IMG/VR virus record: IMGVR_UViG_3300044878_000087
Span: 130,432-194,431 of that record
Reading direction: 5' to 3' (one strand)
Source: a virus
Lineage: Duplodnaviria > Heunggongvirae > Uroviricota > Caudoviricetes
Length of the DNA: 64,000 nucleotides
The position numbers were made by a program, and so were the translations under genes. Positions 2,828-55,640 of the stretch are shown here, piece after piece (the stretch's first letter is position 1; each line of letters opens with the position of its first letter). The notes below the pieces were generated by a model that searched no databases, was not told the DNA's origin, and saw nothing but the letters and a program-made list of their open reading frames with translations.

Positions 2828-2903
2828 GGGTGTGTAGTTCAATTGGCAGAGTAGCGCGCTCCAAACGCGTTGGTTCCAGGTTCGAGTCCAGCCATGCCCG
2901 CCA
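2828..2903 (+). tRNA. tRNA-Trp: tRNA-Trp (anticodon CCA), 76 nt; T-stem carries two mismatches
   Basis: acceptor GGGTGTG/CATGCCC (2 GU pairs), D arm GTTC/GAGT, anticodon arm GCGCG-CTCCAAA-CGCGT, T-loop GGTTCGAGTCC, 3' GCCA. Confidence 0.55.
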
Positions 2904-3623
2904 AACACCACAGACGTCAGTCTGCAAGTCCCCTGGCCTAACCCGCCTTGGGCACCTAAGTTAGTAGTTGAGATATCAGGAGGGTGGGTGTTGCGATTGC
3001 CTCCACTGGTCTGAATAGATCGCGTCAATCGGAATCTATAGTACTTAAAGCCGATTGAGGTAAAGTGGTAAGATCGTCATATCTCCGCTACAAACCCATT
3101 CTCCCTTGAGAGTGGTAAGACCCTCGCAATGGCGTGGGCAGGTCATACACCGATGCCTGATTAATCCTCAGACTAGGGCACCGAGCTGCATGGTGTGTGA
3201 TTATCGAACCCTAAGACGGTTGGCAAAAGATCAGAATAGCCGACTAGCAGGGAAGCTCAAAGCCCGATCCGACAAATACCCCAAAGACCTGATGATCCAG
3301 GTTACTAAGGCGTCATACCGAAGACACGTGAAGACTCGGCTGCAACGGATCAGATGTCCGTCACAGGTTGGCATGGAACAATAGTTCTGTGCGCAACCAC
3401 ATATTCTCAATTACTTGCCCTCCATCGTACTGAAGCTTTGCATGGCGAGTAAGTAGATAGACCTAACGAAACGGTTCGACCTCTAGCGGAATGCCGCGAC
3501 CAGCCCGTGCTGTACATTAGGATAAAAAGCTCGCCCAGCGGCGATCTACACCATACCCGCAATCTGCAGGAATGGATAACCAAGGCTTGAATCTTGGATG
3601 CTGGGAACGAATTTTAGAAACAC
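2904..3623 (+). ncRNA. ORF-poor ~700 bp spacer inside the tRNA cluster; candidate stable structured RNA(s), or degenerate intron/homing-endonuclease remnant
   Basis: no ORF >=60 aa except an Arg-rich 92-aa frame without an RBS; flanked by tRNAs; T4-type tRNA clusters are known to carry stable small RNAs. Confidence 0.3.
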
Positions 3624-3711
3624 GCGGGGATGGTGGAGCGGTATACGCAGCGGCCTTAAAAGCCGCCGCCCTTTACGGGCTCGCTGGGTTCGAATCCCGC
3701 TCCCCGCACCA
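3624..3711 (+). tRNA. tRNA-Leu: tRNA-Leu (anticodon TAA), class II with long variable arm
   Basis: acceptor GCGGGGA/TCCCCGC+ACCA; anticodon arm GCGGC-CTTAAAA-GCCGC; T-loop GGTTCGAATCC. Confidence 0.9.
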
Positions 3712-3717
3712 TATACA

Positions 3718-3805
3718 GGAAGCATGGCCGAGTGGCTCAAGGCAACGGTCTTGAAAACCGTCGGGTGTAATAGCCCCTAGAGTTCGAATCTCTATGCTTC
3801 CGCCA
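3718..3805 (+). tRNA. tRNA-Ser: tRNA-Ser (anticodon TGA), class II
   Basis: acceptor GGAAGCA/TGCTTCC+GCCA; anticodon arm ACGGT-CTTGAAA-ACCGT; T arm TAGAG-TTCGAAT-CTCTA. Confidence 0.9.
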
Positions 3806-3809
3806 GATC

Positions 3810-3885
3810 GCCGACATAGCTCAGATGGCAGAGCAACTGACTTGTAATCAGTAGGTCTTCGGTTCGATTCCGAATGTCGGCACCA
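3810..3885 (+). tRNA. tRNA-Thr: tRNA-Thr (anticodon TGT)
   Basis: acceptor GCCGACA/TGTCGGC+ACCA; anticodon arm ACTGA-CTTGTAA-TCAGT; T-loop GGTTCGATTCC. Confidence 0.9.
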
Positions 3886-4964: not shown

Positions 4965-5354
4965 ATGTATACAAGATTCATGTACCCCCCACGTAGGAAA
5001 ACGCCAACTGACCGTATTCGTGAAGGCGAAGCTCACCGTGCACGTCTAGCTATACGAGAAGCCATTGAAGCCGAAAATACTCGGTTCAAAGGACCAGAAC
5101 CAATTGGTGAGGCAGTAGTAGCTTACGGTGCCGGAATGCATACTGTGTTTCAGCGTATGCGTGGTGATGCCGTGTACAGTAGTGACCAGACGCGTGCGTT
5201 ACTTGAAGATGCGATGTGTAACATACGCAAAGAGTTCACGGAACGACAACGTGAATATCATCGGTATGAACCAACTGTAGTCATCATGACAGACGGCAAA
5301 AGAGATTATTTCTCTCTTCGTTTGGATGGATGGGAAATAATGAGGATCAGCTAA
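4965..5354 (+). CDS. hypothetical protein (129 aa)
   Basis: ORF; its stop TAA overlaps the next start (TAATG). Confidence 0.55.
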   Translation: MYTRFMYPPRRKTPTDRIREGEAHRARLAIREAIEAENTRFKGPEPIGEAVVAYGAGMHTVFQRMRGDAVYSSDQTRALLEDAMCNIRKEFTERQREYHRYEPTVVIMTDGKRDYFSLRLDGWEIMRIS

Positions 5355-6241
5355 TGGAAACACTACCATTGATATACAAAGAACACCTATCTGAACTGGA
5401 TCAATCCGTTAACTTCGAACATCGCATGACCGATCACAAAGGAATGTTAGAAGCACGTTACGTACGACGTAGCGATGATTACTTCATTGTTTATTTGTCG
5501 TCTCAAACAGGATGTAAACAAGCCTGTCGTATGTGTCATCTAACAGCTACGGGTCAAACAGATCTTCGCGACACTACTATCGAAGAATACTGGGATCAAG
5601 CTGATCGTGTACTGAGGTACTATGCTAACAAAACTCCTGCCCGGATGGTGCACTTTAACTTCATGGCTCGTGGTGAACCATTGGCTAATAAGATCTTCCT
5701 AGAGAATGCCGACTTGATTCTGCGTGGTCTAGCTAATCGGGCAAAAGCATTAGGGTTGGAATATAAATTCCTCATATCCACAATCTTCCCAAAAGAGTTT
5801 GATGTCTATGAACTCACCGATGTTTTTAAAGACCCTGCTTTAAGACCGGAACTTTATTACTCGTTGTATTCAACGGATCGTGACTTCCGTAGAAAGTGGC
5901 TAGGTAAAGCAATTGAACCTGGTATTGCACTTACCCTGCTCGGACGTTGGAATCGATCTACTGGTAAAGTACCTAAGATCCATTATGCATTCATTGATAA
6001 TGAAAACGATTCACTCGGTGATGTAAAGCGTTGCATTGATCTGATCCAGCATTATAACGTTCCCGTCAATTGGAACATTGTTCGATATAATCCACCTAAC
6101 GATAAATCGAAAGAGACCATCGAAGGACAAATCAATTACCTGGCTGGTTACATTCGTAGTCGTCTACCGAAGGCACGAGTGAAAGTAATCCCACGGGTCG
6201 GTACAGATGTAAAAGCCAGCTGTGGTACGTTCTTGAAATAA
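5354..6241 (+). CDS. radical SAM enzyme, RlmN/Cfr-like RNA methyltransferase core (SSQTGCKQACRMC...; C-terminal ASCG), lacking the usual N-terminal domain
   Basis: CxxxCxxC preceded by the RlmN/Cfr SSQ.GC hallmark and a C-terminal Cys in an (A/S)CG context; RBS GAGGA; alternative start at 5330. Confidence 0.7.
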   Translation: METLPLIYKEHLSELDQSVNFEHRMTDHKGMLEARYVRRSDDYFIVYLSSQTGCKQACRMCHLTATGQTDLRDTTIEEYWDQADRVLRYYANKTPARMVHFNFMARGEPLANKIFLENADLILRGLANRAKALGLEYKFLISTIFPKEFDVYELTDVFKDPALRPELYYSLYSTDRDFRRKWLGKAIEPGIALTLLGRWNRSTGKVPKIHYAFIDNENDSLGDVKRCIDLIQHYNVPVNWNIVRYNPPNDKSKETIEGQINYLAGYIRSRLPKARVKVIPRVGTDVKASCGTFLK

Positions 6242-6268
6242 AGAAATACTACAGTCGGTATCATATAC
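6239..6268 (+). promoter_or_regulatory. plus-strand promoter-like motif TAAAGAAATAC-N14-TATAC (overlaps the radical-SAM stop)
   Basis: family member. Confidence 0.35.
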
Positions 6269-6277
6269 GACCAGAGC

Positions 6278-6400
6278 ATGTGTTGTAAGCGGTTTGCATG
6301 CGCATGGTGGAAGAGACACATACAAACGACGGCTGTCAACTGTCGAACCGAATGCCTTATTTACGCATGTGACAATGTGTCTATTAAGGAAGTCGTGTAG
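6278..6400 (+). CDS. possible 40-aa Cys-rich peptide (MCCKRFACAWWKRHIQTTAVNCRTECLIYACDNVSIKEVV), immediately downstream of the radical SAM gene
   Basis: ATG about 10 nt after the TATAC element (would be near-leaderless); weak RBS; 6 Cys in 40 aa. Confidence 0.25.
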   Translation: MCCKRFACAWWKRHIQTTAVNCRTECLIYACDNVSIKEVV

Positions 6401-6551
6401 CCAAGCACTACGGAGATGACCTATCCTGCTGATTGCAGGGGCTTTGAAGTAGTACCACTGGAACGCGGCGCCGGATAACACCGTGATCCCTGATTACTTG
6501 GGGAAAAGCTGGCCGGCCATGGAGATATCTGGTTTAACTTACGCAACGAGT

Positions 6552-6567
6552 CTCACCTGCGGGTGGG
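6552..6567 (+). terminator. hairpin CTCACC-TGCG-GGTGGG followed by ACTTTATGCAGCGTAAAG
   Basis: hairpin plus TTTATGC box family. Confidence 0.45.
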
Positions 6568-6580
6568 ACTTTATGCAGCG

Positions 6581-6610
6581 TAAAGAAATACTCGCGGTAA
6601 TACAATATAC
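6581..6610 (+). promoter_or_regulatory. plus-strand promoter-like motif TAAAGAAATAC-N14-TATAC
   Basis: family member; upstream of the 6677 gene. Confidence 0.4.
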
Positions 6611-6676
6611 AGGACTATACGTTCAAGCACTTAGAAGATGAAGAGCATCTTTATCAAAGCTTGAAAGGTATAAAAC

Positions 6677-6988
6677 ATGTTTTACAATGATTGGTCCGAA
6701 AGTGGTATTGAAGGTTTGATGTGTGACTTCCGCATTAGCGAAAGCGAAATGGATGGGGTAACAATCATTTACGCTACTTATACTTACGAAGATTACAGTG
6801 GGTCCGCCTACGTACTATTCGTCAAGCATGGGAAGTATTATGAAGTCCATGGTTCTCACTGCTCCTGTATGGGACTGGAAGAACAATGGGACCCAGAGGA
6901 ATGTACCTACGTGGAATTGGCAGAGATGCTGACAAGGCGAGGTGATACTGAAGTCGCTCAGGCTCTCAATACTTACTTGGATAAATGA
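6677..6988 (+). CDS. hypothetical protein (103 aa) with a possible metal-binding HGSHCSC motif
   Basis: RBS AAAGG. Confidence 0.55.
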   Translation: MFYNDWSESGIEGLMCDFRISESEMDGVTIIYATYTYEDYSGSAYVLFVKHGKYYEVHGSHCSCMGLEEQWDPEECTYVELAEMLTRRGDTEVAQALNTYLDK

Positions 6989-7036: not shown

Positions 7037-7066
7037 TAAAAGAATACTGGCGGTGTCAGTGTATGT
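7037..7066 (+). promoter_or_regulatory. plus-strand promoter-like motif TTAAAAGAATAC-N14-TATGT (variant), upstream of rtcB
   Basis: extended similarity to the 6581 copy over about 40 nt. Confidence 0.35.
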
Positions 7067-7100
7067 AACACTCCCTCTTTCCACTCGCGTGAGGCTTTAT

Positions 7101-8366
7101 ATGAAACAACAAACTCGTACATTCGAAATTCTCGGTGGTGAACCAGAACCAGGTTCTAAACCAATCAAAGGTTGGACCGTTGGTGTTCCCGTAGAACCCG
7201 ATGCAATCAAGCAACTCAAGAACTTGGCAGCTCTGCCATTCATCCAATCCCACCTGGCGGTAATGCCAGACGTGCATGTGGGTAAAGGTGCGACTATCGG
7301 TTCTGTGATCGCTACCAAAGGCGCAATCATTCCAGCAGCCGTAGGCGTTGACATCGGTTGTGGTATGGCGGCTTATCGCCTGAACGCTTCTGCTAAAGAT
7401 CTGCCTGATTCGTTGGGTCACGTTCGTGCAGCTATCGAAGCGGTAATCCCTCATGGCCGTACAGATAACGGCGGGAAGAACGACCGTGGTGCCTTCGGTA
7501 CTGTAAAAGTATTCAACCACCCAGTCAAGGCTGTCCGTGAAGAAGCTGAAAAGCTCAAGCGTGAACTGGAAGTCATCGTTCAGAAATATCCGAAGCTCTC
7601 TAAGGCTGCTGAGCGTGCATGGATGCATATCGGTACTCTCGGCACAGGTAATCACTTCGTAGAGCTGTGCTTGGACGAAGCGGACCGTGTATGGGTAATG
7701 CTGCACTCTGGTTCCCGTGGGATCGGTAACGCAATCGGTACACTGTTCATCAACCTGGCCAAAGAAGAGATGCGCCGCTTCTTTATCAACCTGCCAGATC
7801 AAGAACTCGGCTACTTGCCGTACGGTTCCAAGTACTACGCCGACTACCTGCATGCAGTACAGTGGGCACAACGTTTCGCTGCTCTGAATCGTTCTGTGAT
7901 GATGCATGCTACTTTGGATGCAATTCATCGTACCCTCGGTCTGCCAATCGATTCCGATATGGAAGCGATCAACTGCCACCACAACTACGTATCGGAAGAG
8001 CGTCACTTCGGTGATAACGTTCTGGTAACACGTAAAGGTGCAGTAGCGGCCTATGAAGGTAAGCTCGGGATCATTCCAGGTTCGATGGGCGCTAAGTCTT
8101 TCATCGTTCGTGGTAAAGGCCATCGTGATTCGTTCTGTTCATGTTCGCATGGTGCAGGTCGTGTAATGTCACGTAAGGCAGCAGAGCGTGTGTTCACGCT
8201 AGAGGACCACATTCGTGATACGGCTGGAGTTGAGTGCCGTAAAGACGAAGGCGTCCTAGATGAGACACCAAAGGCTTACAAGAATATCGATGATGTGATG
8301 GCAGCCCAAGCTGAACTGGTTGACATCGTCCATACCCTGAAACAAGTTCTTTGCGTTAAGGGTTGA
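7101..8366 (+). CDS. rtcB: RtcB 3'-phosphate/5'-OH RNA ligase
   Basis: hallmark GTGNHF, CHHNY and SCSHGAGR motifs; RBS GTGAGG before the ATG at 7101 (track start at 7053 is probably too early). Confidence 0.9.
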   Translation: MKQQTRTFEILGGEPEPGSKPIKGWTVGVPVEPDAIKQLKNLAALPFIQSHLAVMPDVHVGKGATIGSVIATKGAIIPAAVGVDIGCGMAAYRLNASAKDLPDSLGHVRAAIEAVIPHGRTDNGGKNDRGAFGTVKVFNHPVKAVREEAEKLKRELEVIVQKYPKLSKAAERAWMHIGTLGTGNHFVELCLDEADRVWVMLHSGSRGIGNAIGTLFINLAKEEMRRFFINLPDQELGYLPYGSKYYADYLHAVQWAQRFAALNRSVMMHATLDAIHRTLGLPIDSDMEAINCHHNYVSEERHFGDNVLVTRKGAVAAYEGKLGIIPGSMGAKSFIVRGKGHRDSFCSCSHGAGRVMSRKAAERVFTLEDHIRDTAGVECRKDEGVLDETPKAYKNIDDVMAAQAELVDIVHTLKQVLCVKG

Positions 8367-44211: not shown

Positions 44212-45567
44212 TTATTCATCAGCCTTCTTTAGCAAATAGCTATTGCTGATGCACTTGAACGACAGGATCTTGTTACGAGCTTTGAACACGAAGCCTTCGC
44301 GGTAGGTACCTTTCTTCTGGTTGAAAGCACGTTGACCTTCAGCCATAGCCAGGATATCTTTCACGGTAGCATCTTTCGGGATCACGAACGACTCGTGTGC
44401 AACAGGAACGTAGGTCAGACCCAGTTCAGCTACGATGACACGAGCTTCATCCGGCAGCAGTTCTTCGTTACCATTGCGGAACACCGAGAACACGTAGAAC
44501 TCATGTTTCTCAACGCCTTCGAAGTTCGACTGGATGTCAGGACCGATCAGCTCACCTTGAACGGTGATGTACTGACCAGTACGAGCTTGGTATGCTTTCA
44601 GCTTCTGGACGACTTCATGTTCTTTCACGTAGCGGGTGAAGTTGTTCTCAGTAACCAAAGCCCCCTTACGCCATTCAGGCCAGTGGATGCGTTTGACTTT
44701 GAACATCTTACGGTTACGTGCCAGGAAAGAACCAGTCCAGTAACGAATCTGATCTAGCAGCGACCACGGTGCAGCATCCCCCAGCGACAGCTCGAAGTTA
44801 CGCGAGCAGACACCGGTACGAACACCACTATCGTCGAGGCAGAACACAGTCATCGAAGAACCATCCAGCTTATAGGTAACTTCGAATTCAGTTCCGTCTT
44901 CTTGAGCCAGAGTGAACGCAACAGTTTTGTTCTGTACGCGATCTTGGTCGGACTTGATCAGTTGACCAGGCCATGGCATCAGCGAACCATCCAGACCTTT
45001 CAGGATGCGACGAACCAACCGACCATACCAATCCGAAGCTGCTACCGCGCCATTACCGTCACGTTCAGTTTGTGGCTTTGGCTCGTACTTCAGGATACCG
45101 AGCTCCAGAGTCAGGTTGGTATCTACTGGCAGATCCTTGTACTTGTCAGGGACCGGAACCAACAGACCTTGCGACAGTTCTTTACGCAGCTTGATGGTAG
45201 ACAGGCGATGGTAGTTCTCACCGTTTACACGACGGTTCGACGAACGACGTTCTTCCAGGAAACCGAAGAGTTCCACGTTCGACAGTGGAAGCAGAGAGTC
45301 GATCTCACAATAAACTGCGCGTTCGCCTTTCTTGTACTCACCGATCTTGACACACAGTTGCCAGCCACCTACAACTGCCAGTTCCAGTGCATCGGCATTA
45401 GGGTGCTTAACCACATCATTGATTTCCACGATACGGGCAAGCTTACGATCTTTTTCTACAACACCGAAACCATCACGGATCGGCTTTTCTTCAACTACAG
45501 GTGCTACAACTGCTTCGGTCATTGCAAGTTCCTCGTGTGATATTGAAACAGATTCCTCTGTAATCAA
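44212..45567 (-). CDS. ATP-dependent RNA ligase fused to an N-terminal tRNA-binding OB-fold (Myf/EMAP-like, KHPNADALELAVVGGWQ) domain
   Basis: nucleotidyltransferase motif I YKLDGSS, motif IV REGFVFK, motif V LSFKCISNSYLLKK; N-terminal KHPNAD tRNA-binding signature. Confidence 0.75.
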   Translation of the reverse strand: MITEESVSISHEELAMTEAVVAPVVEEKPIRDGFGVVEKDRKLARIVEINDVVKHPNADALELAVVGGWQLCVKIGEYKKGERAVYCEIDSLLPLSNVELFGFLEERRSSNRRVNGENYHRLSTIKLRKELSQGLLVPVPDKYKDLPVDTNLTLELGILKYEPKPQTERDGNGAVAASDWYGRLVRRILKGLDGSLMPWPGQLIKSDQDRVQNKTVAFTLAQEDGTEFEVTYKLDGSSMTVFCLDDSGVRTGVCSRNFELSLGDAAPWSLLDQIRYWTGSFLARNRKMFKVKRIHWPEWRKGALVTENNFTRYVKEHEVVQKLKAYQARTGQYITVQGELIGPDIQSNFEGVEKHEFYVFSVFRNGNEELLPDEARVIVAELGLTYVPVAHESFVIPKDATVKDILAMAEGQRAFNQKKGTYREGFVFKARNKILSFKCISNSYLLKKADE

Positions 45568-46852: not shown

Positions 46853-48313
46853 TTATACAGCCACAGGTGCTTCAATGGCAGGCTGTGGATTGTAGCCCAC
46901 AACTTCCAAGTCATGATAAGTCATGTCGAGGATCGAAGTACCGATTGGGAGTTTGATGTTCAACCGAGGTAGCTCATTATGCGGTGTGCGCTCTTGTTGT
47001 TCTCTTACCTGATCTAGATGGTTCAGATAAATGTGAGCATCGCCGACCATGTGCACGAGTTCTTCACCGTACATGTTGAATTGATGTGCCAGCTTGTGCG
47101 TCAAAGACGAATAGAACGTCAGGTTGTATGGTGCACCCAAGAACACGTCATTAGAACGCATATAGAAGATGCAAGTCAAGCCACGACGTGGAACATTCAG
47201 TTCATCGAGATAAGCATGGAGTTTATGCTCATCCCGTTTATAAGAACCATCTTCCACATGCATGAACACACCCAATGGATACGGTTCATGTGTCGTATAG
47301 ATGTCAGCACGACTACGCTTTGCGATGTCACTATGCAGCTCATCACGTTCACGCATCCAACGCTTCACGTAAATGTCATAGCGTTTTTCAGCAGACAGCT
47401 CACGCGTCCAGAACTGAATGAACGAGTGGCATGGAGGTAAAGCTTGTTCATCTACATACGCTGGGTTCCATGGGCACAGAATCAAGCGACGGGAATCTGG
47501 ATTGTTTTCCAGATCACGCAATAAGTTAGCTACCTGATCGATCTTACGAGTCATGCAGCGCTCATAACCTGAATCCATTGCAATCGTAAACCCGCGAGCT
47601 TTCATCTTCTCAGTAAGGGCTTCAAATTCTGCAATGGCGATATCTTGCTCTTCTGGATTACTCCACGAACCACACTTGATGTGACGGGTGTCTTCGATGT
47701 TACGGAACATCTCACCGTAGACTTTACCGAGTTCACCATCAACTACTTCTTGATCAGAGATACCCAGAGCTACGAAGAACTTGAACCAGATTGGATCTTC
47801 TTGATCCATCCAACTCATCCAGTTCTTGGCATCCTCGGTTTTGTCGAAAATGCCGTGGTGCTTCTTGATCCCTGGGGTTCCTACGTATTCGTAGATATTA
47901 AAGTCATCGCTTTCATAGACAAGTGTCCATACTGGTACAACGTCAGGCGTAGCACCAATGTCTAATACTACTGGCCGATCCCAACCGAAATGGTTACGCT
48001 TGTAGACACGACGCATTTCTTTCAGCAAACGTGGGCGATAGGTACCCGTACCTTCCAGTACCCATTCATCCCAGATGTTACAGTTGTTCTCTTTCAAGAA
48101 CTTCAGGCGGGTATCACCGGAGATCATCCAGTCTTCTTCGACCTGACCAGTTTTCAGATGAATCTTTTTGGTCGACACTGCAGCCAAGCGATAATCACTG
48201 ATGTCATAACGACGCATAACACCAGGTGCAGAAATTGTACCCGTTTTGGTGCGGTCTTCTTTTTGTGTACCACGATGCAGAACTTCCGTCTGCATAGTCA
48301 AGTAGTCTTTCAC
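46853..48313 (-). CDS. thymidylate synthase family enzyme (ThyA or dUMP hydroxymethylase-like) with a ~110-aa insertion after the NIWDEW motif
   Basis: N-terminal MKDYL..VL..GT.K.DRT.TGT; LPPCHSFIQFW active-site Cys; RSNDVFLGAPYN (Asn suggests uracil specificity). Confidence 0.8.
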   Translation of the reverse strand: MKDYLTMQTEVLHRGTQKEDRTKTGTISAPGVMRRYDISDYRLAAVSTKKIHLKTGQVEEDWMISGDTRLKFLKENNCNIWDEWVLEGTGTYRPRLLKEMRRVYKRNHFGWDRPVVLDIGATPDVVPVWTLVYESDDFNIYEYVGTPGIKKHHGIFDKTEDAKNWMSWMDQEDPIWFKFFVALGISDQEVVDGELGKVYGEMFRNIEDTRHIKCGSWSNPEEQDIAIAEFEALTEKMKARGFTIAMDSGYERCMTRKIDQVANLLRDLENNPDSRRLILCPWNPAYVDEQALPPCHSFIQFWTRELSAEKRYDIYVKRWMRERDELHSDIAKRSRADIYTTHEPYPLGVFMHVEDGSYKRDEHKLHAYLDELNVPRRGLTCIFYMRSNDVFLGAPYNLTFYSSLTHKLAHQFNMYGEELVHMVGDAHIYLNHLDQVREQQERTPHNELPRLNIKLPIGTSILDMTYHDLEVVGYNPQPAIEAPVAV

Positions 48314-48979: not shown

Positions 48980-50812
48980 TTATGCGGCTTCTTTGAGTTC
49001 TGTGAAGAACGATTCGCGTGCGATCGACGCTTCGATACGTTCACGCATCTCAGACAACTTCACTTGACGCAGGAACTTACCATTACGGAACAACGGTTTC
49101 AGTTCACCCGATCCTTCCATCAGATTATCCCAGGTCATTTCGACTTCCTGTTCGAGACGGTAGTTGTGATCAGCATCCCGTACTACGCGCAGGAAGCCTT
49201 TAGCAGACTTCTTGGACAGTGCGGTCTTCGGATCTTTGTACAGCTCGATCAGTTCATCGTTCACTTCACAAGCAGTGGCCTTCATCGCCATGCCGAAAGT
49301 ATCACGGGTGTTCATCTGGTAGGTATAGGAACCGATACCCAGTACAACGTTCGACGATGCGAAGCCTTTCTCCGCCAGACGACGGAAGATTTCTTCAGTA
49401 CGTTCTACAGTGATCGAGTCACCATAGATCAGACCGATGTATTCATTCAGGACTTTGTAGCCCTTGGTGTTTACATGGCCACCGAAAGAAGCCCACAGCG
49501 ATTCGATAGCACCACGAGCTTCCACTTCACGCATTTCACGACCGAGGAATTCCTCAGCAGTGGAGTTGCTGAACTGGTGCGGGTTGCGGTGATTCTGGAG
49601 TTCGTAGTATTTGTCACCGATACGGATAGCTTCACCGTTGACAGCTTCCCAACCGAAGTCGTGCAACGCGGTCTTGAATGCTTCCATCGAGCCGAATTCG
49701 ACAAGATAGAAACCGCAGATCACGTGAACTGGATTACCCGAGTCTGGACGCACAACAACTTTGGCCAGACCGATCTCGTTCTTGATACGGCTTTCGATCT
49801 CAGCACGGATCGAAGGCAGCAGGTCTGCGATCACCGACCAGAAGTCGAACGAGTCACATACCAACGAGATGATACCGGTCTTCACTTTCTGCAGGATGAT
49901 TTCCAGAATGTATTCACGCTCACATTCCAGTTTCAGCTTGTCGACGAAAGCAGCCCAGTTCTCAGGAGCCACGGAATCCAGCTTGGAATCTTTGTCCAGC
50001 CATTTCAGCTTTTGTTTCAGGCGGGTCAGGATATTCGCAGTAGCCACGGCGTGTTCGGTAGCAGTAACAGAACCAGCAATGAGTTCCACGTCCGAATTCG
50101 CGTGATACAGTGCTTCCAGGTAATCGATAGCCGGGATGGTATCGGTACCAGCGAAAGGTAGCATGTGGCCAGCATTGGAACGACCAGCAGCTTCTGGACC
50201 AGGCATACCACGGAACGAGAAGTCGTGACCTTGCCAGATGATGTGATCACGGTTATCACAGGTACGCTCAGCCCAGTCTTCCATAACCCGACGATATTCG
50301 TAGGCGATGGTAGCGTTGGTGATCGACTGCCAGTTATACGAACTGGTGATGGTTTCCAGGTAGTTAACCAACCAGTAGTGTTCTTTATTATCATCGGAAC
50401 TGTAGACAACCCACAGCGGGATACCGATGTTAACACGTTCACCTTCTTCCAGTGCCAACACCGTGACAGGCAGGTAACCCAGGTCGTGCAGCTTAGCGAT
50501 CTGTTTGGTGGAGATGACGTCTTTACCACAAGCGTTATCGAAACGACGCTTGGTTTCTTTGATTGCTTTCTTCTTCTCTACTTGGAAGAAGGTACGATCC
50601 CACAGCTCAACCAGTTCTTGCCAGGTGCCATAGAGACCGAAGTTCACGACTTTGTTATCGTAGTGAACGGAGCAGGATTTCGAGTTCAGGAAGTTCTTCG
50701 CCGAACGCGGGGTGAAGTTTGAATACTTCCGGGTCGTGCCTTCCGGATACAGAGGACCGTGACCAGGTTTGTAGAAGTCGGTACCAGTTGCTGCTTTAAG
50801 CCATTGTGCCAT
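48980..50812 (-). CDS. NAMPT/PBEF-family phosphoribosyltransferase (610 aa); candidate Namat (nicotinamide ADPR transferase) or NadV
   Basis: matches to NAMPT motifs: HDFSFRG...AGTDT, RPDSGNP, IYGDS, LGIGSYTYQ; sits next to the Prs-like gene. Confidence 0.85.
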   Translation of the reverse strand: MAQWLKAATGTDFYKPGHGPLYPEGTTRKYSNFTPRSAKNFLNSKSCSVHYDNKVVNFGLYGTWQELVELWDRTFFQVEKKKAIKETKRRFDNACGKDVISTKQIAKLHDLGYLPVTVLALEEGERVNIGIPLWVVYSSDDNKEHYWLVNYLETITSSYNWQSITNATIAYEYRRVMEDWAERTCDNRDHIIWQGHDFSFRGMPGPEAAGRSNAGHMLPFAGTDTIPAIDYLEALYHANSDVELIAGSVTATEHAVATANILTRLKQKLKWLDKDSKLDSVAPENWAAFVDKLKLECEREYILEIILQKVKTGIISLVCDSFDFWSVIADLLPSIRAEIESRIKNEIGLAKVVVRPDSGNPVHVICGFYLVEFGSMEAFKTALHDFGWEAVNGEAIRIGDKYYELQNHRNPHQFSNSTAEEFLGREMREVEARGAIESLWASFGGHVNTKGYKVLNEYIGLIYGDSITVERTEEIFRRLAEKGFASSNVVLGIGSYTYQMNTRDTFGMAMKATACEVNDELIELYKDPKTALSKKSAKGFLRVVRDADHNYRLEQEVEMTWDNLMEGSGELKPLFRNGKFLRQVKLSEMRERIEASIARESFFTELKEAA

Positions 50813-50830
50813 GTTGAATCAATTCCTTGT

Positions 50831-51775
50831 TTACAGGTGCGTAAATGCGATCAGGTTTTCAGGATTGGTTTCACGTTCTGGAAGATCAACGTGATAGGTG
50901 TTCATGGTGTAGACTTTGTCGAAGACGTCAGTCAGGACCTGGACACCAGCAGAGAAGATGCCGTGAGTTACATACAGCGACAACGAACCCAGATCGTAGT
51001 CCTTCAGAACTTTTGCCAGTTCAGTAAAGGTACGGCCACCATCACAGATGTCGTCAACGATCAACAGGTCTTCACCAGCCAGATCAGTCAACTCCATAAC
51101 TTCATTGCCAGCAACGAAGCTATCGACGGTAGTACGCAGGATCTTGCCGTCACGAGTATTACGAACTTTGTTGGCGTATACTACACCTTTAAAGCCGAAC
51201 TCTTTGGCTAGCGATTCTACTTTCTTGCGTGCCCCAGCATCAGGCGCTACCAGAATGGTATTCGAAGGATCGATGCGATGATCACTCGCCCAGTCCAGCA
51301 TGTGCTTACGGAACAGATCGTTCAGCGAGAACACGCGTGCATTGTTCAGTACCGAGCCGATTACGTCTGAGTGTGGATCGGTCAGAATCACACGTTCTAC
51401 GTCCAGGCTGTTGATGACATGAGCAAATGCCTTAGCCGAGTTCGCTTCACCTGGATTGCACACACGGTCTTGACGAGCGTATGGCATGTAACCGATGTCC
51501 AACGTGATCGATGGGTTGGCCACAACGGCGTTCTCACGGATAGCGTTCACAGCCATGATCAGAGACCATGCTGCAGCAGCGTCGGGTAATGCGGCAACGA
51601 TACGATAGCTTTCGCCTTTGTACCACTGACCTTCACGACCCAGGCCATCTTCACGAGGGATCGATACGTTTACTTCACCTGCAGGAAACATCCGACCGTC
51701 ACGAATTTTGGATGGGAATGTATGTGTCACCCCCAAACCTTCTTGCGAAACGATCAACTTCAAATTCTGACTCAT
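50831..51775 (-). CDS. ribose-phosphate pyrophosphokinase family protein (Prs/Adps-like)
   Basis: IGYMPYARQDR and the PRPP-binding motif LLIVDDICDGGRTF; 314 aa. Confidence 0.85.
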   Translation of the reverse strand: MSQNLKLIVSQEGLGVTHTFPSKIRDGRMFPAGEVNVSIPREDGLGREGQWYKGESYRIVAALPDAAAAWSLIMAVNAIRENAVVANPSITLDIGYMPYARQDRVCNPGEANSAKAFAHVINSLDVERVILTDPHSDVIGSVLNNARVFSLNDLFRKHMLDWASDHRIDPSNTILVAPDAGARKKVESLAKEFGFKGVVYANKVRNTRDGKILRTTVDSFVAGNEVMELTDLAGEDLLIVDDICDGGRTFTELAKVLKDYDLGSLSLYVTHGIFSAGVQVLTDVFDKVYTMNTYHVDLPERETNPENLIAFTHL

Positions 51776-52122: not shown

Positions 52123-53490
52123 TTATGCAGCCGATACTAACTCCTGTGTGGGAGCAGTGCTTTTGTTCTTGAGTGGGCGCGGTGGCTCTGGTTGTATAGC
52201 GTAGTTCTCCGCGACGTATTTGTCGTCCAACGTTCCCAGCTTATCAATGAAAGCCAGGTGATCGTTAGGATGCTCCATGAAGATCCCTGCCAAAGTAGAA
52301 GCGGGAGTATCTGGGTACATTACATTACGATCGTAAGTAGGATTATCATACATCGTATCGATATAGCGCTTGATCTCAGGATCTTTAAGCGGCAGCACTT
52401 CGATCAGCTTGTTCACACGAGACGGACGGTAGACCGCTGGGTCGATCAGTTCCAGGTGGTTAGTAGTCAGTACGATAATAATGTCATCGAGCTCTACAAC
52501 ACCTTGCAGGACGTTGAGGAAGGTACTGAGCTGGATCTCACAGTCCATCAACAACGCTTCTGGTTTCTTATCAGCTCCACCGCCATCGAAGTCGGAGATC
52601 TCCATCTTCTTCGGACCGGTACGACGATGCAATGTCTTCACATCATCGAAGTCTTCAATGACCAGCATATCACCCGGCGAGAGCTTACCCATTAGTTCAA
52701 CGAGTTGTCTGCCATGGGACGCCAGGTTCAAGAAGTGGATGTCACGTTTGTACTTACGGGCACCACGTTTGATAAGCGACGTTTTACCAGTACCCGGAGG
52801 ACCGTGGAGAACGATGGTGTGCTTGTAAGCCAAACCACGTTTACGATACCAGGATTCATTGTTGATGTACCAGTCAATAGAACCGAAGAAGTCTTTCTCT
52901 ACTTCGGGATCGATAACTAGCGTTTCATCAACATCTAAACGCAAACGACCCTGATAACTCCAGCCCTCGTTATGAGGACCGTAGATACGGATGGAATCTT
53001 TGCATGGTTTGATTCGGAACTCTTCCACTAGTTCTTCGAATGGTTGTGTGGTTCGACCGAAAGTGTAGAGGGTGAACTCTTCCTTCTCGATATCGGTACC
53101 AGACGAATCCAAACGACGTACGTTGAACCAGAAGTAACGACCTTTCCAGATAAACCAGTGGAAGCCACCACCCGGACCGAATGCAGGATTATCACGATCG
53201 AAGGTTACCCGACGATTGCGATCGTACTTAGCCCATTTCGAATTGGAGAACCAACGCATGAACTCAGCGTAGTTCTGCAAGTCCATGGAGTACGTACCAG
53301 CACGCGTGAACGTCATCGATGAAATCGTGTTACGCTTGACGAAGTTCCACGCCGAAGTGGGGATAGTCCGCCCCAAATAACCCAACAGACCCATGAGACC
53401 TAACGTCATGAAACCTTTGACGGTAGAGTCCCCTGAGCTGAGCATTTCAAGCGTCTTGTGAAAGAACGCCAAGATGTCCGTGATTAACAT
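52123..53490 (-). CDS. BCS1-like membrane-anchored AAA+ ATPase
   Basis: N-terminal TM helix; Walker A LHGPPGTGKTS; Walker B MLVIEDFDD; BCS1-type architecture. Confidence 0.8.
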   Translation of the reverse strand: MLITDILAFFHKTLEMLSSGDSTVKGFMTLGLMGLLGYLGRTIPTSAWNFVKRNTISSMTFTRAGTYSMDLQNYAEFMRWFSNSKWAKYDRNRRVTFDRDNPAFGPGGGFHWFIWKGRYFWFNVRRLDSSGTDIEKEEFTLYTFGRTTQPFEELVEEFRIKPCKDSIRIYGPHNEGWSYQGRLRLDVDETLVIDPEVEKDFFGSIDWYINNESWYRKRGLAYKHTIVLHGPPGTGKTSLIKRGARKYKRDIHFLNLASHGRQLVELMGKLSPGDMLVIEDFDDVKTLHRRTGPKKMEISDFDGGGADKKPEALLMDCEIQLSTFLNVLQGVVELDDIIIVLTTNHLELIDPAVYRPSRVNKLIEVLPLKDPEIKRYIDTMYDNPTYDRNVMYPDTPASTLAGIFMEHPNDHLAFIDKLGTLDDKYVAENYAIQPEPPRPLKNKSTAPTQELVSAA

Positions 53491-54206
53491 TATTCCATCC
53501 CAGGCATTAGTAGTACGGTTGTGTCGAAACCATCAGCACGAATGAAGTCAAAGAATGCACCTTCCATATCAGCTTCTTCTTCTTCTTCTGGTGCCCCGAG
53601 TTCTTTCAGGTGGTTATCGCAATAAGCAACAACCGCTTCTGTTTGGCGTCTCACCAGTCTTAGCATTTCTGCCGTAAGTAATAGCACTACAGTGATGGTC
53701 AAGTGCGTGGTGGTACGTGGGTTATCGTAATGATGATCTTCCCGCGTATCCAGCCCTGCACCAGCTACCACCATATCGAAGTTCTCACGGAGCTGATCAT
53801 AATGCATCAACGGCTGCGAGCGAAGCCCAGCTGTTTCTACTCTGATCCCCCAGGACATGACGTGATTAATCGTTGCGGCATTTACCATGTCATGTACAGC
53901 GCCGTACGAATTGGAGATCTCGTTCAGATCGGGCCAATACGTTTTGATGTCTTCTGGTAATACCCACAGGTTACCATCACCCATACGAGCAACAGGAATA
54001 GTGTGGATATTAACCTGGATCAGTTCTTTTGAATCGATCGATAGCTTTTCTGGTAGCCATGCCAATTGATCATACAGCAGATCATTCAAGTCGTACTTGT
54101 TGATCTGTGTGAATTCTGGTTTGTTGCTCAACTCACGAAAGATCTGGCCATCACGCTGAAAGAGATCACGCTTGACGATGTGGGCCTTTTGTTCCACCAG
54201 GTTCAC
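53490..54206 (-). CDS. hypothetical protein (238 aa), coupled upstream of the AAA+ ATPase
   Basis: 1-nt stop/start overlap. Confidence 0.55.
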   Translation of the reverse strand: MNLVEQKAHIVKRDLFQRDGQIFRELSNKPEFTQINKYDLNDLLYDQLAWLPEKLSIDSKELIQVNIHTIPVARMGDGNLWVLPEDIKTYWPDLNEISNSYGAVHDMVNAATINHVMSWGIRVETAGLRSQPLMHYDQLRENFDMVVAGAGLDTREDHHYDNPRTTTHLTITVVLLLTAEMLRLVRRQTEAVVAYCDNHLKELGAPEEEEEADMEGAFFDFIRADGFDTTVLLMPGME

Positions 54207-54919
54207 GCTTTACCTCCTTGGTGTACTTGCCAGCCAGCTGGCAGACTACGACGGGTTTTAGGTGCGGGCAATGCGGTACCACTTACATTGCCGAAGTTCA
54301 GCAATGGGGCAGCCTGTTCTTTAGCAGCAGGTTTTTCAGCACGCTGTGCAATGGTCGGACGGCGCATGAGTTCAACGTTGGTTGGCAGTTTATTACCTTC
54401 CTCATCATGGGTCTGTAGTTCGATACCGTGGACAGCGTAAGGTGCAGCTTCAATTGGTTTAGCGGCAGAGAAGGTTGGCGGCATGGTGTCTTGTGCAGAA
54501 CCGGGCCATACCACACCACTTTCATTCAGCATTTTGTGCAGATCTTGAACTTGCTGAATGGCGTACAGTTCACGCTCGTAGTTCGGAATCTGGAGAATGC
54601 TTTCATGTTGGTCACAGGTCGGCACAACGAAAGCCAGTACAGCTTCGTATGGAACTTCCAGAGAAACGTCTGCACCATTGAAGCCACACATGAAACTGAA
54701 GTTGTCTTCATTGTAGCGGAAGTTGCGTGTTGCTTGTGCAGCGATGTTCAAACGAATCTGATACAACCCGTTCACTTGTGGTTCCAACAAACCGACATCA
54801 AACATCCGAGCATCTGCGATGATGTGGATGCGACTGGAAATACCCATGTCGACGAACCATTGGATCATCGCGTTCATAATTACACGGCACATGTTGGTAT
54901 CATTTTGTACTTGATTCAC
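54203..54919 (-). CDS. hypothetical protein (238 aa), first gene of the AAA+ operon
   Basis: ATGA overlap. Confidence 0.55.
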   Translation of the reverse strand: MNQVQNDTNMCRVIMNAMIQWFVDMGISSRIHIIADARMFDVGLLEPQVNGLYQIRLNIAAQATRNFRYNEDNFSFMCGFNGADVSLEVPYEAVLAFVVPTCDQHESILQIPNYERELYAIQQVQDLHKMLNESGVVWPGSAQDTMPPTFSAAKPIEAAPYAVHGIELQTHDEEGNKLPTNVELMRRPTIAQRAEKPAAKEQAAPLLNFGNVSGTALPAPKTRRSLPAGWQVHQGGKA

Positions 54920-54929
54920 TTTTTATTCC

Positions 54930-55640
54930 TTAGTTGAATTGCCAGTTGGGATATTTGGAACTTTTTGCACGTCTTTTAGCTGATGACTTTGAAATACCAA
55001 ATGCCTTAGCTGCAAAGGAGGCACTTGGATAAACAATCCCATCAACGCTAATTGGATAACCTAACTTTTCTGTCGGTGCTGTACGTTGCCGATCTGTTAC
55101 TTCTACAAGTGCAGCTTTCGCTTTTCTCTCAGGTGTCCATGATTTAAGACTTGCCTTAGACATAGCTTCACGTCTTTCTGGTGACCATTGTTCTTTAACA
55201 GCTATACTTTTCTTAGCTCGTTCTTCATCAGTCCAGCGTTCTGATGATACCGCACTATGGGCTAATCTTTTATCGTCAGTCCACGCGATTGCCATTGCTG
55301 TCGCATGTTCTGCTTTTCTTTCAATCGTCCACGATGCAGATATTGCTTCTTTAACTACATCAGTGCGTGGCCGCCCCACTTGGTTCATCATGGCGATATT
55401 GTCGACATTATCATGGATCAAATGTAATTCGTGGGCGCGTGCATCTTCTATAGTCGCTTGCTCAGTAAACTCCCAGATTAGTTTCTTATCCAGATTAAAG
55501 TTGTACTGTAGCATTTCGTTAACATGTACTCCTCGCCGAAGATCGGACAAGTGGTAATGTCGACGTTTGATAAAGTTTTCAGTGCTGCCGATATAAAACA
55601 TCCCGGTAAAGGGATGGGTGATTCTGTATGTACCGATCAT
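54930..55640 (-). CDS. Seg-like GIY-YIG homing endonuclease with C-terminal repeated W(T/S)xER(K/R) NUMOD-like DNA-binding motifs
   Basis: GTYRITHPFTGMFYIGSTENF... GIY-YIG signature; four or more W.xER repeats; RBS AAGGAG; own promoter copy at 55677. Confidence 0.75.
   Translation of the reverse strand: MIGTYRITHPFTGMFYIGSTENFIKRRHYHLSDLRRGVHVNEMLQYNFNLDKKLIWEFTEQATIEDARAHELHLIHDNVDNIAMMNQVGRPRTDVVKEAISASWTIERKAEHATAMAIAWTDDKRLAHSAVSSERWTDEERAKKSIAVKEQWSPERREAMSKASLKSWTPERKAKAALVEVTDRQRTAPTEKLGYPISVDGIVYPSASFAAKAFGISKSSAKRRAKSSKYPNWQFN

Follow-up and report, generated by a model that had tools for sequence, protein, structure and literature searches.

The 64,000-nucleotide (nt) stretch of phage DNA analyzed here (positions 130,432 to 194,431 of IMG/VR virus record IMGVR_UViG_3300044878_000087, called the window below) carries an RNA ligase gene within a long minus-strand gene block, and this gene and its product are the subject of the present analysis. 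Position numbers are those of the whole stretch. The mechanical open reading frame (ORF) call runs from 44212 to 45567 on the minus strand and gives a 451 amino acid (aa) protein with a TTG start codon. The ribosome-binding site and the N-termini of homologs favor the ATG at 45522 (M16 of the ORF) over the TTG start at 45567, which was dropped: direct reading of the sequence finds a Shine-Dalgarno-like GAGGA (45530..45534, minus strand) 7 nt upstream of the ATG, no ribosome-binding site precedes the TTG, and homologs begin at the equivalent of M16. The 15 codons from TTG to ATG (45523..45567, minus strand) are probably untranslated, and the most likely coding sequence is 44212..45522 (minus strand, stop codon included), which encodes a 436 aa Rnl5-type RNA ligase that PHROG 968 ("RNA ligase") matches over nearly its full length (E = 1.5e-104). 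Because the ATG has the GAGGA sequence, an identical 436 aa protein is already on record (P0001, on a 310,743-bp contig) and the N-terminus of the phage D6 "RNA ligase" (434 aa) agrees with the M16 start, residue numbers below are those of the 436 aa protein unless ORF numbering is stated (ORF residue number minus 15 gives the 436 aa number).

The protein is built of an N-terminal OB-fold domain (residues 26–148; 45079..45447), an interdomain linker (residues 149–190; 44953..45078) and a C-terminal nucleotidyltransferase (NTase; adenylyltransferase) domain (residues 191–436; 44215..44952), all encoded on the minus strand, with the linker delimited by HMMER alignment to 5cot, an alignment of homologs and the secondary structure of an AlphaFold2 (AF2) model. 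Two Pfam families match above threshold, PF21189 ("PHA02142 OB-fold domain", E = 2e-23, ORF residues 43–139) and PF09414 ("RNA_ligase", E = 2e-20, ORF residues 227–437). The first-pass annotation of this locus had described a KxDG ligase with a tRNA_bind-type OB fold fused to its N-terminus, and the two Pfam domains together with the AF2 model (pLDDT 88.2), which superposes on the Naegleria gruberi RNA ligase NgrRnl, bear that description out. Every motif it had cited is also located in the ORF (in ORF numbering, CVKIG at 72–76, YKLDGSS at 232–238, EGFVFK at 424–429 and the motif V lysine in SFKCIS at 437–438; KHPNADALELAVVGGWQ occupies 54–70). On the minus strand of the window the OB domain includes HPNAD (45358–45408) and KLRKELSQGLL (45160–45192), and the NTase domain includes motif I K218-L-D-G (44860–44871), motif Ia SRN (residues 240–242; 44797–44805), motif III QGE (residues 322–324; 44551–44559), motif IV EGFVFK (44281–44298) and the motif V lysine K423 (44254–44256). 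The protein stops 13 residues past this lysine, so that there is no C-terminal appendage.

The active-site residues can be compared with those of the eukaryal ligase NgrRnl, for which all structural statements here are drawn from PMC7261155. In that enzyme Arg4 and Lys121 of the OB domain touch the ATP gamma-phosphate, Asp53 reaches the second metal complex through water, and Arg149, Lys170, Asp172, Glu227, Glu312 and Lys326 of the NTase domain complete a two-metal site (PMC7261155). All of these residues have counterparts in the phage protein, namely R26, K145 and D75 in the OB domain (matched to NgrRnl by HMMER alignment) and R195, K218, D220, E324, E409 and K423, respectively, in the NTase domain. 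In an alignment of 37 homologs that are 39–87% identical to the query, the three OB residues and R195, K218, E324, E409 and K423 are invariant, and D220 is replaced by N in a few sequences.

NgrRnl is also the strongest match among solved structures by every route taken. A single-sequence search finds it (5COT and the 6VT* series) at E = 3e-40; a profile of 37 sequences run against the PDB finds it at E = 1.5e-83, with T4 Rnl2 (E = 0.003) and Pab1020 far behind; and Foldseek comparison of the AF2 model again places it first (E = 2e-30, target TM 0.77–0.81), followed by T4 Rnl2 (E = 4e-7). NgrRnl and the Deinococcus radiodurans ligase DraRnl are prototypes of the Rnl5 family, whose hallmark is an N-terminal OB module followed by a C-terminal NTase domain without a C-terminal appendage (PMC4408790, PMC7261155), and the same order, PF21189 and then PF09414, is found in the phage protein, whose model superposes on 5COT. 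The layouts of T4 Rnl1 and Rnl2 are not found here, as the first-pass annotation had correctly stated: the NTase domain comes last, no C-terminal domain follows it, and the NCBIfam model for Rnl2 (TIGR02307) gives only E = 0.008. T4 Rnl2 has the NTase fold in common with the query, and its Foldseek match is to the NTase core only; its C-terminal helical domain is absent from the query, and it lacks the N-terminal OB domain that the query has. Membership in the Rnl5 family, the fold and the conservation of the catalytic residues are directly established. The nearest relatives are proteins of PhiPA3-, Phabio-, Psa21-, PA1C- and D6-like jumbo Pseudomonas phages (PhiPA3 is classified in the Chimalliviridae), and the D6 and PhiPA3 ligases, which are 87% and 61% identical to the query, respectively, have the same architecture. 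We consider it very probable that the gene product is a polynucleotide ligase of the Rnl5 family that depends on ATP, and that the phage carrying the gene is a jumbo Pseudomonas phage of the PhiPA3/D6 type.

Homology predicts that the enzyme proceeds through the three steps classic for ligases. In step 1 Lys218 of motif I (KLDG) would attack the ATP alpha-phosphate to form ligase-AMP, with the OB domain closing over the active site as a catalytic lid in which Arg26, Lys145 and Asp75 would hold the gamma-phosphate and the second metal and in doing so set the orientation of the pyrophosphate leaving group, and with Arg195, Glu324, Glu409 and Lys423 of the NTase domain predicted to complete the active site. 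In step 2 the AMP would be passed to a 5'-phosphate, and in step 3 attack by an RNA 3'-OH would seal the break. The three-step pathway with an OB lid is the best supported mechanism because the residues with which NgrRnl binds ATP and metal are conserved, all but D220 being invariant. As its substrate we expect a duplex nicked between a 3'-OH and a 5'-PO4, the strand with the 3'-OH being RNA, and Mn2+ is the probable cofactor. Both this nick preference and the chemistry are inferred from the characterized relatives: DraRnl and NgrRnl use ATP, prefer Mn2+ and seal nicks in duplexes where the 3'-OH strand is RNA, their N domain being needed for step 1 only (PMC1807946, PMC4408790), and NgrRnl acts feebly on single-stranded RNA and not at all on single-stranded DNA (PMC4408790). 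T4 Rnl2 and the kinetoplastid RNA-editing ligases share the expected sealing of 3'-OH/5'-PO4 duplex nicks with an RNA 3'-OH strand (PMC4408790).

Several observations weigh against this assignment. The query does not reach the equivalog cutoff of TIGR02306 (151.15 bits), scoring 139.6 bits (E = 1.1e-40) in two stretches, and its PhiPA3 homolog is also below it at 131.5 bits; shorter relatives pass in a single stretch (P0108 at 177, P0116 at 210 and the Aeromonas phage 31 protein at 557 bits). The protein has ~90–96 residues more than the 340 aa NgrRnl, to which it is ~29% identical overall, in the form of an N-terminal extension, a linker helix and a basic insertion. We found no biochemically characterized phage Rnl5 in the literature, so that the nick and metal preferences are extrapolated from one bacterial and one amoebal enzyme at ~29% identity. 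To judge by its sequences, the jumbo-phage branch of Rnl5 is divergent. The shortfall against TIGR02306 probably arises because the insertions split the alignment and not because family features have been lost, and in our view the protein represents a divergent Rnl5 branch, not another kind of enzyme. One might read the subthreshold score and the large insertions as signs of a ligase homolog that has lost catalysis or been repurposed (as a structural or regulatory protein, for example), but all residues of the two-metal adenylylation site are conserved and a confident model superposes on NgrRnl, which makes this explanation exceedingly improbable.

The additional residues lie in three places. 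The N-terminal extension is acidic, spans 22 residues and is modeled with low confidence. The linker is ~22 residues longer than that of NgrRnl and contains a predicted helix (165–174) in a region of lower pLDDT in the AF2 model. The third addition, a basic insertion between motifs Ia and III (residues 246–303; 44614..44787, minus strand), contains predicted helices, has no aligned counterpart in 5cot, amounts to a net ~47 residues over NgrRnl, has 11 K/R in 58 aa, and in the homolog alignment displays the conserved pattern W..Q.R.W...NR(R/K)...P.W..G....N.F. The spacing from motif Ia to motif III is 70–138 residues in 111 of 112 close homologs and 43 in one short form (82 in the query), and the insertion is typical of the subfamily and not peculiar to the query. 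DraRnl (DR_B0094; TIGR02306), the founding member of the same family, is 342 aa long and has no such insertions; its gene shows a phenotype in radiation resistance (PMC5397189), for which no phage parallel is known. The protein of Aeromonas phage 31 shares the architecture of the query but is only 29% identical to it.

The ORFs that directly flank the ligase gene have no assignable function, apart from one weak match to a "head maturation protease" PHROG. Farther upstream of the gene lie genes for a thymidylate synthase, NAMPT, a PRPP synthetase, an AAA ATPase and a GIY-YIG homing endonuclease, and the gene order around the ligase is common to phage D6. The only tRNA genes of the window (Trp, Leu, Ser and Thr; 2828–3885, plus strand) are more than 40 kb from the ligase gene, and ~3 kb downstream of them a gene for an RtcB-type RNA ligase (7053–8366, plus strand) is identified by PF01139 (E = 6e-127) and PHROG 1075. 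With RtcB and Rnl5 both present in the window, the phage encodes two mechanistically different RNA ligases. An RtcB-type ligase needs no end healing. Pfam and PHROG scans that covered the window's large ORFs and the small ORFs on either side of the ligase revealed no Pnkp, kinase or HAD phosphatase, although a divergent enzyme could escape them; in motif scans of the window for healing enzymes, the AAA ATPase alone had a Walker A motif, and no ORF had the HAD motif DxDxT.

Ligase neighborhoods were also surveyed in 80 related phage loci (72 of them non-redundant) over up to 10 kb on each side. Among the 72 loci the ligase gene has a thymidylate synthase gene nearby in 9, NAMPT in 9, RtcB in 4 and Rnl1 in 2, and tRNA genes lie within 10 kb in 10 (a raw count, with no chance expectation set beside it). 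A tblastn search with the Pnkp of Aeromonas phage 31 found no Pnkp in any of the 80 loci. RtcB is on the ligase strand in all four of its loci (L023, 11357–12556; L008, 8438–9679; L012, 1797–3002; L065, 13228–14433); it directly abuts the ligase gene in L023 and is ~320 nt from it in L008, and this proximity hints that the two ligases may be functionally paired. In the T4-like Aeromonas phage 31 (L085) the Rnl5 gene (5779–6879) lies between rnh-59-32 and frd-td, and separate rnlA and pseT genes are a few kb away, which places three genes for RNA-end joining or healing in one 11-kb region. The pair rnlA and pseT is the classical tRNA-repair pair.

These observations bear on what the ligase does for the phage, and in particular on the suggestion in the first-pass annotation that the OB domain pre-targets the ligase to tRNA. 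By descent the OB domain belongs to the tRNA_bind (PheRS beta B2-like) type, sharing with that family its OB sub-fold and remote homology. Nonetheless, the isolated N domain has no HMMER match to PF01588 (tRNA_bind) at E ≤ 10, although the positive controls E. coli PheT 1–160 (E = 1e-27) and MetRS-C (E = 4e-26) were matched; a profile search of the PDB at E ≤ 10 contains no tRNA-binding protein among its matches; and a Trbp111-type kinship, sought by profile comparison with E. coli MetRS-C, was not detected (probability 0.2%). Relative to the PF01588 domains (PheRS beta B2, Trbp111, CsaA, YtpR, MetRS-C, Arc1p and EMAP-II/p43) the query OB domain has an extra helical insert at 81–108. The known role of the OB domain in Rnl5 enzymes is binding of the ATP gamma-phosphate and not tRNA binding: in NgrRnl it acts in step 1 (lysine adenylylation) via Arg4, Asp53 and Lys121 (PMC7261155) and is dispensable when a pre-adenylylated nick enters step 3 (PMC4408790, PMC7261155). 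By analogy with NgrRnl, the Rnl5 OB domain is best described as a catalytic adenylylation module and not as a demonstrated tRNA-targeting device. It could still be argued that the N-terminal OB domain binds tRNA and steers the ligase to broken tRNAs, which would make it a dedicated phage tRNA-repair ligase directed against host anticodon nucleases. The kinship of the domain with tRNA_bind speaks for such a role, but the invariant OB residues of the query are exactly those that contact ATP and metal in NgrRnl, the characterized Rnl5 enzymes are feeble on single-stranded RNA (PMC4408790), the N domain lacks a HMMER-level match to PF01588 or MetRS-C, and no Pnkp-type healing enzyme was found in the window or within 10 kb of the ligase in the 80 phage loci. 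Furthermore, Aeromonas phage 31 has its Rnl5 besides rnlA and pseT, adjoining frd-td and replication genes, and in the window the ligase gene is 36 kb from RtcB and farther still from the tRNA genes. We therefore find tRNA repair by this route improbable and do not favor tRNA pre-targeting by the OB domain; the earlier observation of the domain fusion is correct and ordinary, and its interpretation is partly supported.

Gene context is neutral as to an RNA-repair role, gives no specific support for tRNA targeting by the OB domain, and would fit a role at RNA/DNA junctions equally well; the radiation phenotype of DraRnl suggests such a role for that enzyme (PMC5397189). The ligase might serve DNA replication or repair by joining an RNA 3'-OH (a primer remnant or ribonucleotide patch) in the phage genome to the DNA 5'-phosphate next to it. 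A DNA strand on the 5'-PO4 side is accepted by DraRnl and NgrRnl if the 3'-OH strand is RNA, and deletion of DraRnl causes sensitivity to ionizing radiation and slower genome reassembly in D. radiodurans (both PMC5397189, PMC4408790). The position of the gene among those for thymidylate synthase, NAMPT and PRPP synthetase, in the window as in D6 and several other jumbo-phage loci, the thymidylate synthase (ThyA) linkage in 9 of the 72 loci and the site of the Aeromonas phage 31 gene between rnh-59-32 and frd-td all point the same way. However, gene neighborhood is weak evidence in phages, the linkage is seen in a minority of loci, and the adjacency of RtcB in other loci points to RNA repair instead, so we put this role forward only as a tentative possibility, likelier to be wrong than right. 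In the PHROG 968 Rnl5 proteins, and in the jumbo-phage branch especially, the basic insertion, linker helix and OB domain could also form an extra nucleic-acid-binding surface that gives a substrate specificity unlike that of DraRnl or NgrRnl (for broken tRNA stems or other phage-relevant RNA, for example) and acts alongside RtcB, whose gene directly adjoins that of Rnl5 in some jumbo phages, a proposal that we think unlikely. Our preferred assignment remains a nick-sealing Rnl5 ligase whose OB domain would serve in adenylylation.

The family itself is widespread and has been known for some time. The OB-NTase family has been described since 2004 and has carried the name Rnl5 since 2015 (PMC1807946, PMC4408790, PMC7261155). 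The N module of DraRnl was earlier described as putatively homologous to the PheRS beta B2 OB fold and as necessary for adenylylation (PMC1807946), and the same description of DraRnl aligned it with an Aeromonas phage 44RR2.8t protein and placed its clade in bacteria, phages and eukarya. The 2015 proposal of Rnl5 included phage members from Aeromonas, Caulobacter, Mycobacterium and Sinorhizobium hosts (PMC4408790), and the family also occurs in bacteria, archaea, fungi and amoebae (PMC7261155). Our searches found 2744 homologous proteins at E ≤ 1e-5, with both Pfam domains present in 120 of the 120 matches listed, and 338 phage records with a homolog (306 at ≥ 80% coverage), many of them annotated as RNA ligase. 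Phage homologs of the same architecture include Aeromonas phage 44RR2.8t/31 ORF209c, the members of PHROG 968 and the Psa21 and Phabio proteins, and the query aligns end to end by BLASTP (E = 4e-39) with the 366 aa protein of Aeromonas phage 31, which is of the same species as the 44RR2.8t source. The fusion that had been taken as unusual is in fact the signature layout of Rnl5, and of the proposal that it defines a distinct phage clade, the distinctness from Rnl1 and Rnl2 stands but novelty and restriction to phages do not. The discovery value is accordingly small, since the architecture, the PheRS-like OB domain and the phage members have been in the literature since 2004–2015 and curated models already cover both domains (a dedicated Pfam, a TIGRFAM and a PHROG family). 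A jumbo phage that has both RtcB and Rnl5 is nonetheless a reasonable system in which to ask what a nick-sealing RNA ligase does during infection.

Some other genes of the window deserve mention. The thymidylate synthase homolog (46853–48313, minus strand) is unusually long at 486 aa, and positions 1–155 of the Pfam profile are spread over its residues 2–305, which implies a large internal insertion; in D6, too, the syntenic gene is annotated as a long thymidylate synthase. An NAD-salvage pair lies at 48980–51775 (minus strand) and is kept next to the ligase region in several jumbo-phage loci; it consists of a 610 aa nicotinamide phosphoribosyltransferase resembling NAMPT and a 314 aa protein resembling PRPP synthetase. 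At 53490–54919 and 52123–53490 (both minus strand) two adjacent 238 aa ORFs, one of them SspB-like (PF04386, E = 2e-7), lie beside a BCS1-N/AAA ATPase (455 aa), and the SspB-like protein and the ATPase may constitute an adaptor plus unfoldase pair. The homing endonuclease of the same gene block (54930–55640, minus strand) is of the GIY-YIG/I-TevI type, with GIY-YIG catalytic and I-TevI DNA-binding domains. On the plus strand, three tandem paralogous ORFs (33–2676) match the virion structural families PHROG 1062 and 3589, and a 303 aa protein encoded between the tRNA cluster and RtcB (5330–6241) matches PHROG 27142 ("Fe-S-cluster redox domain-containing", E = 3e-138) and has a weak, sub-threshold radical-SAM Pfam match.
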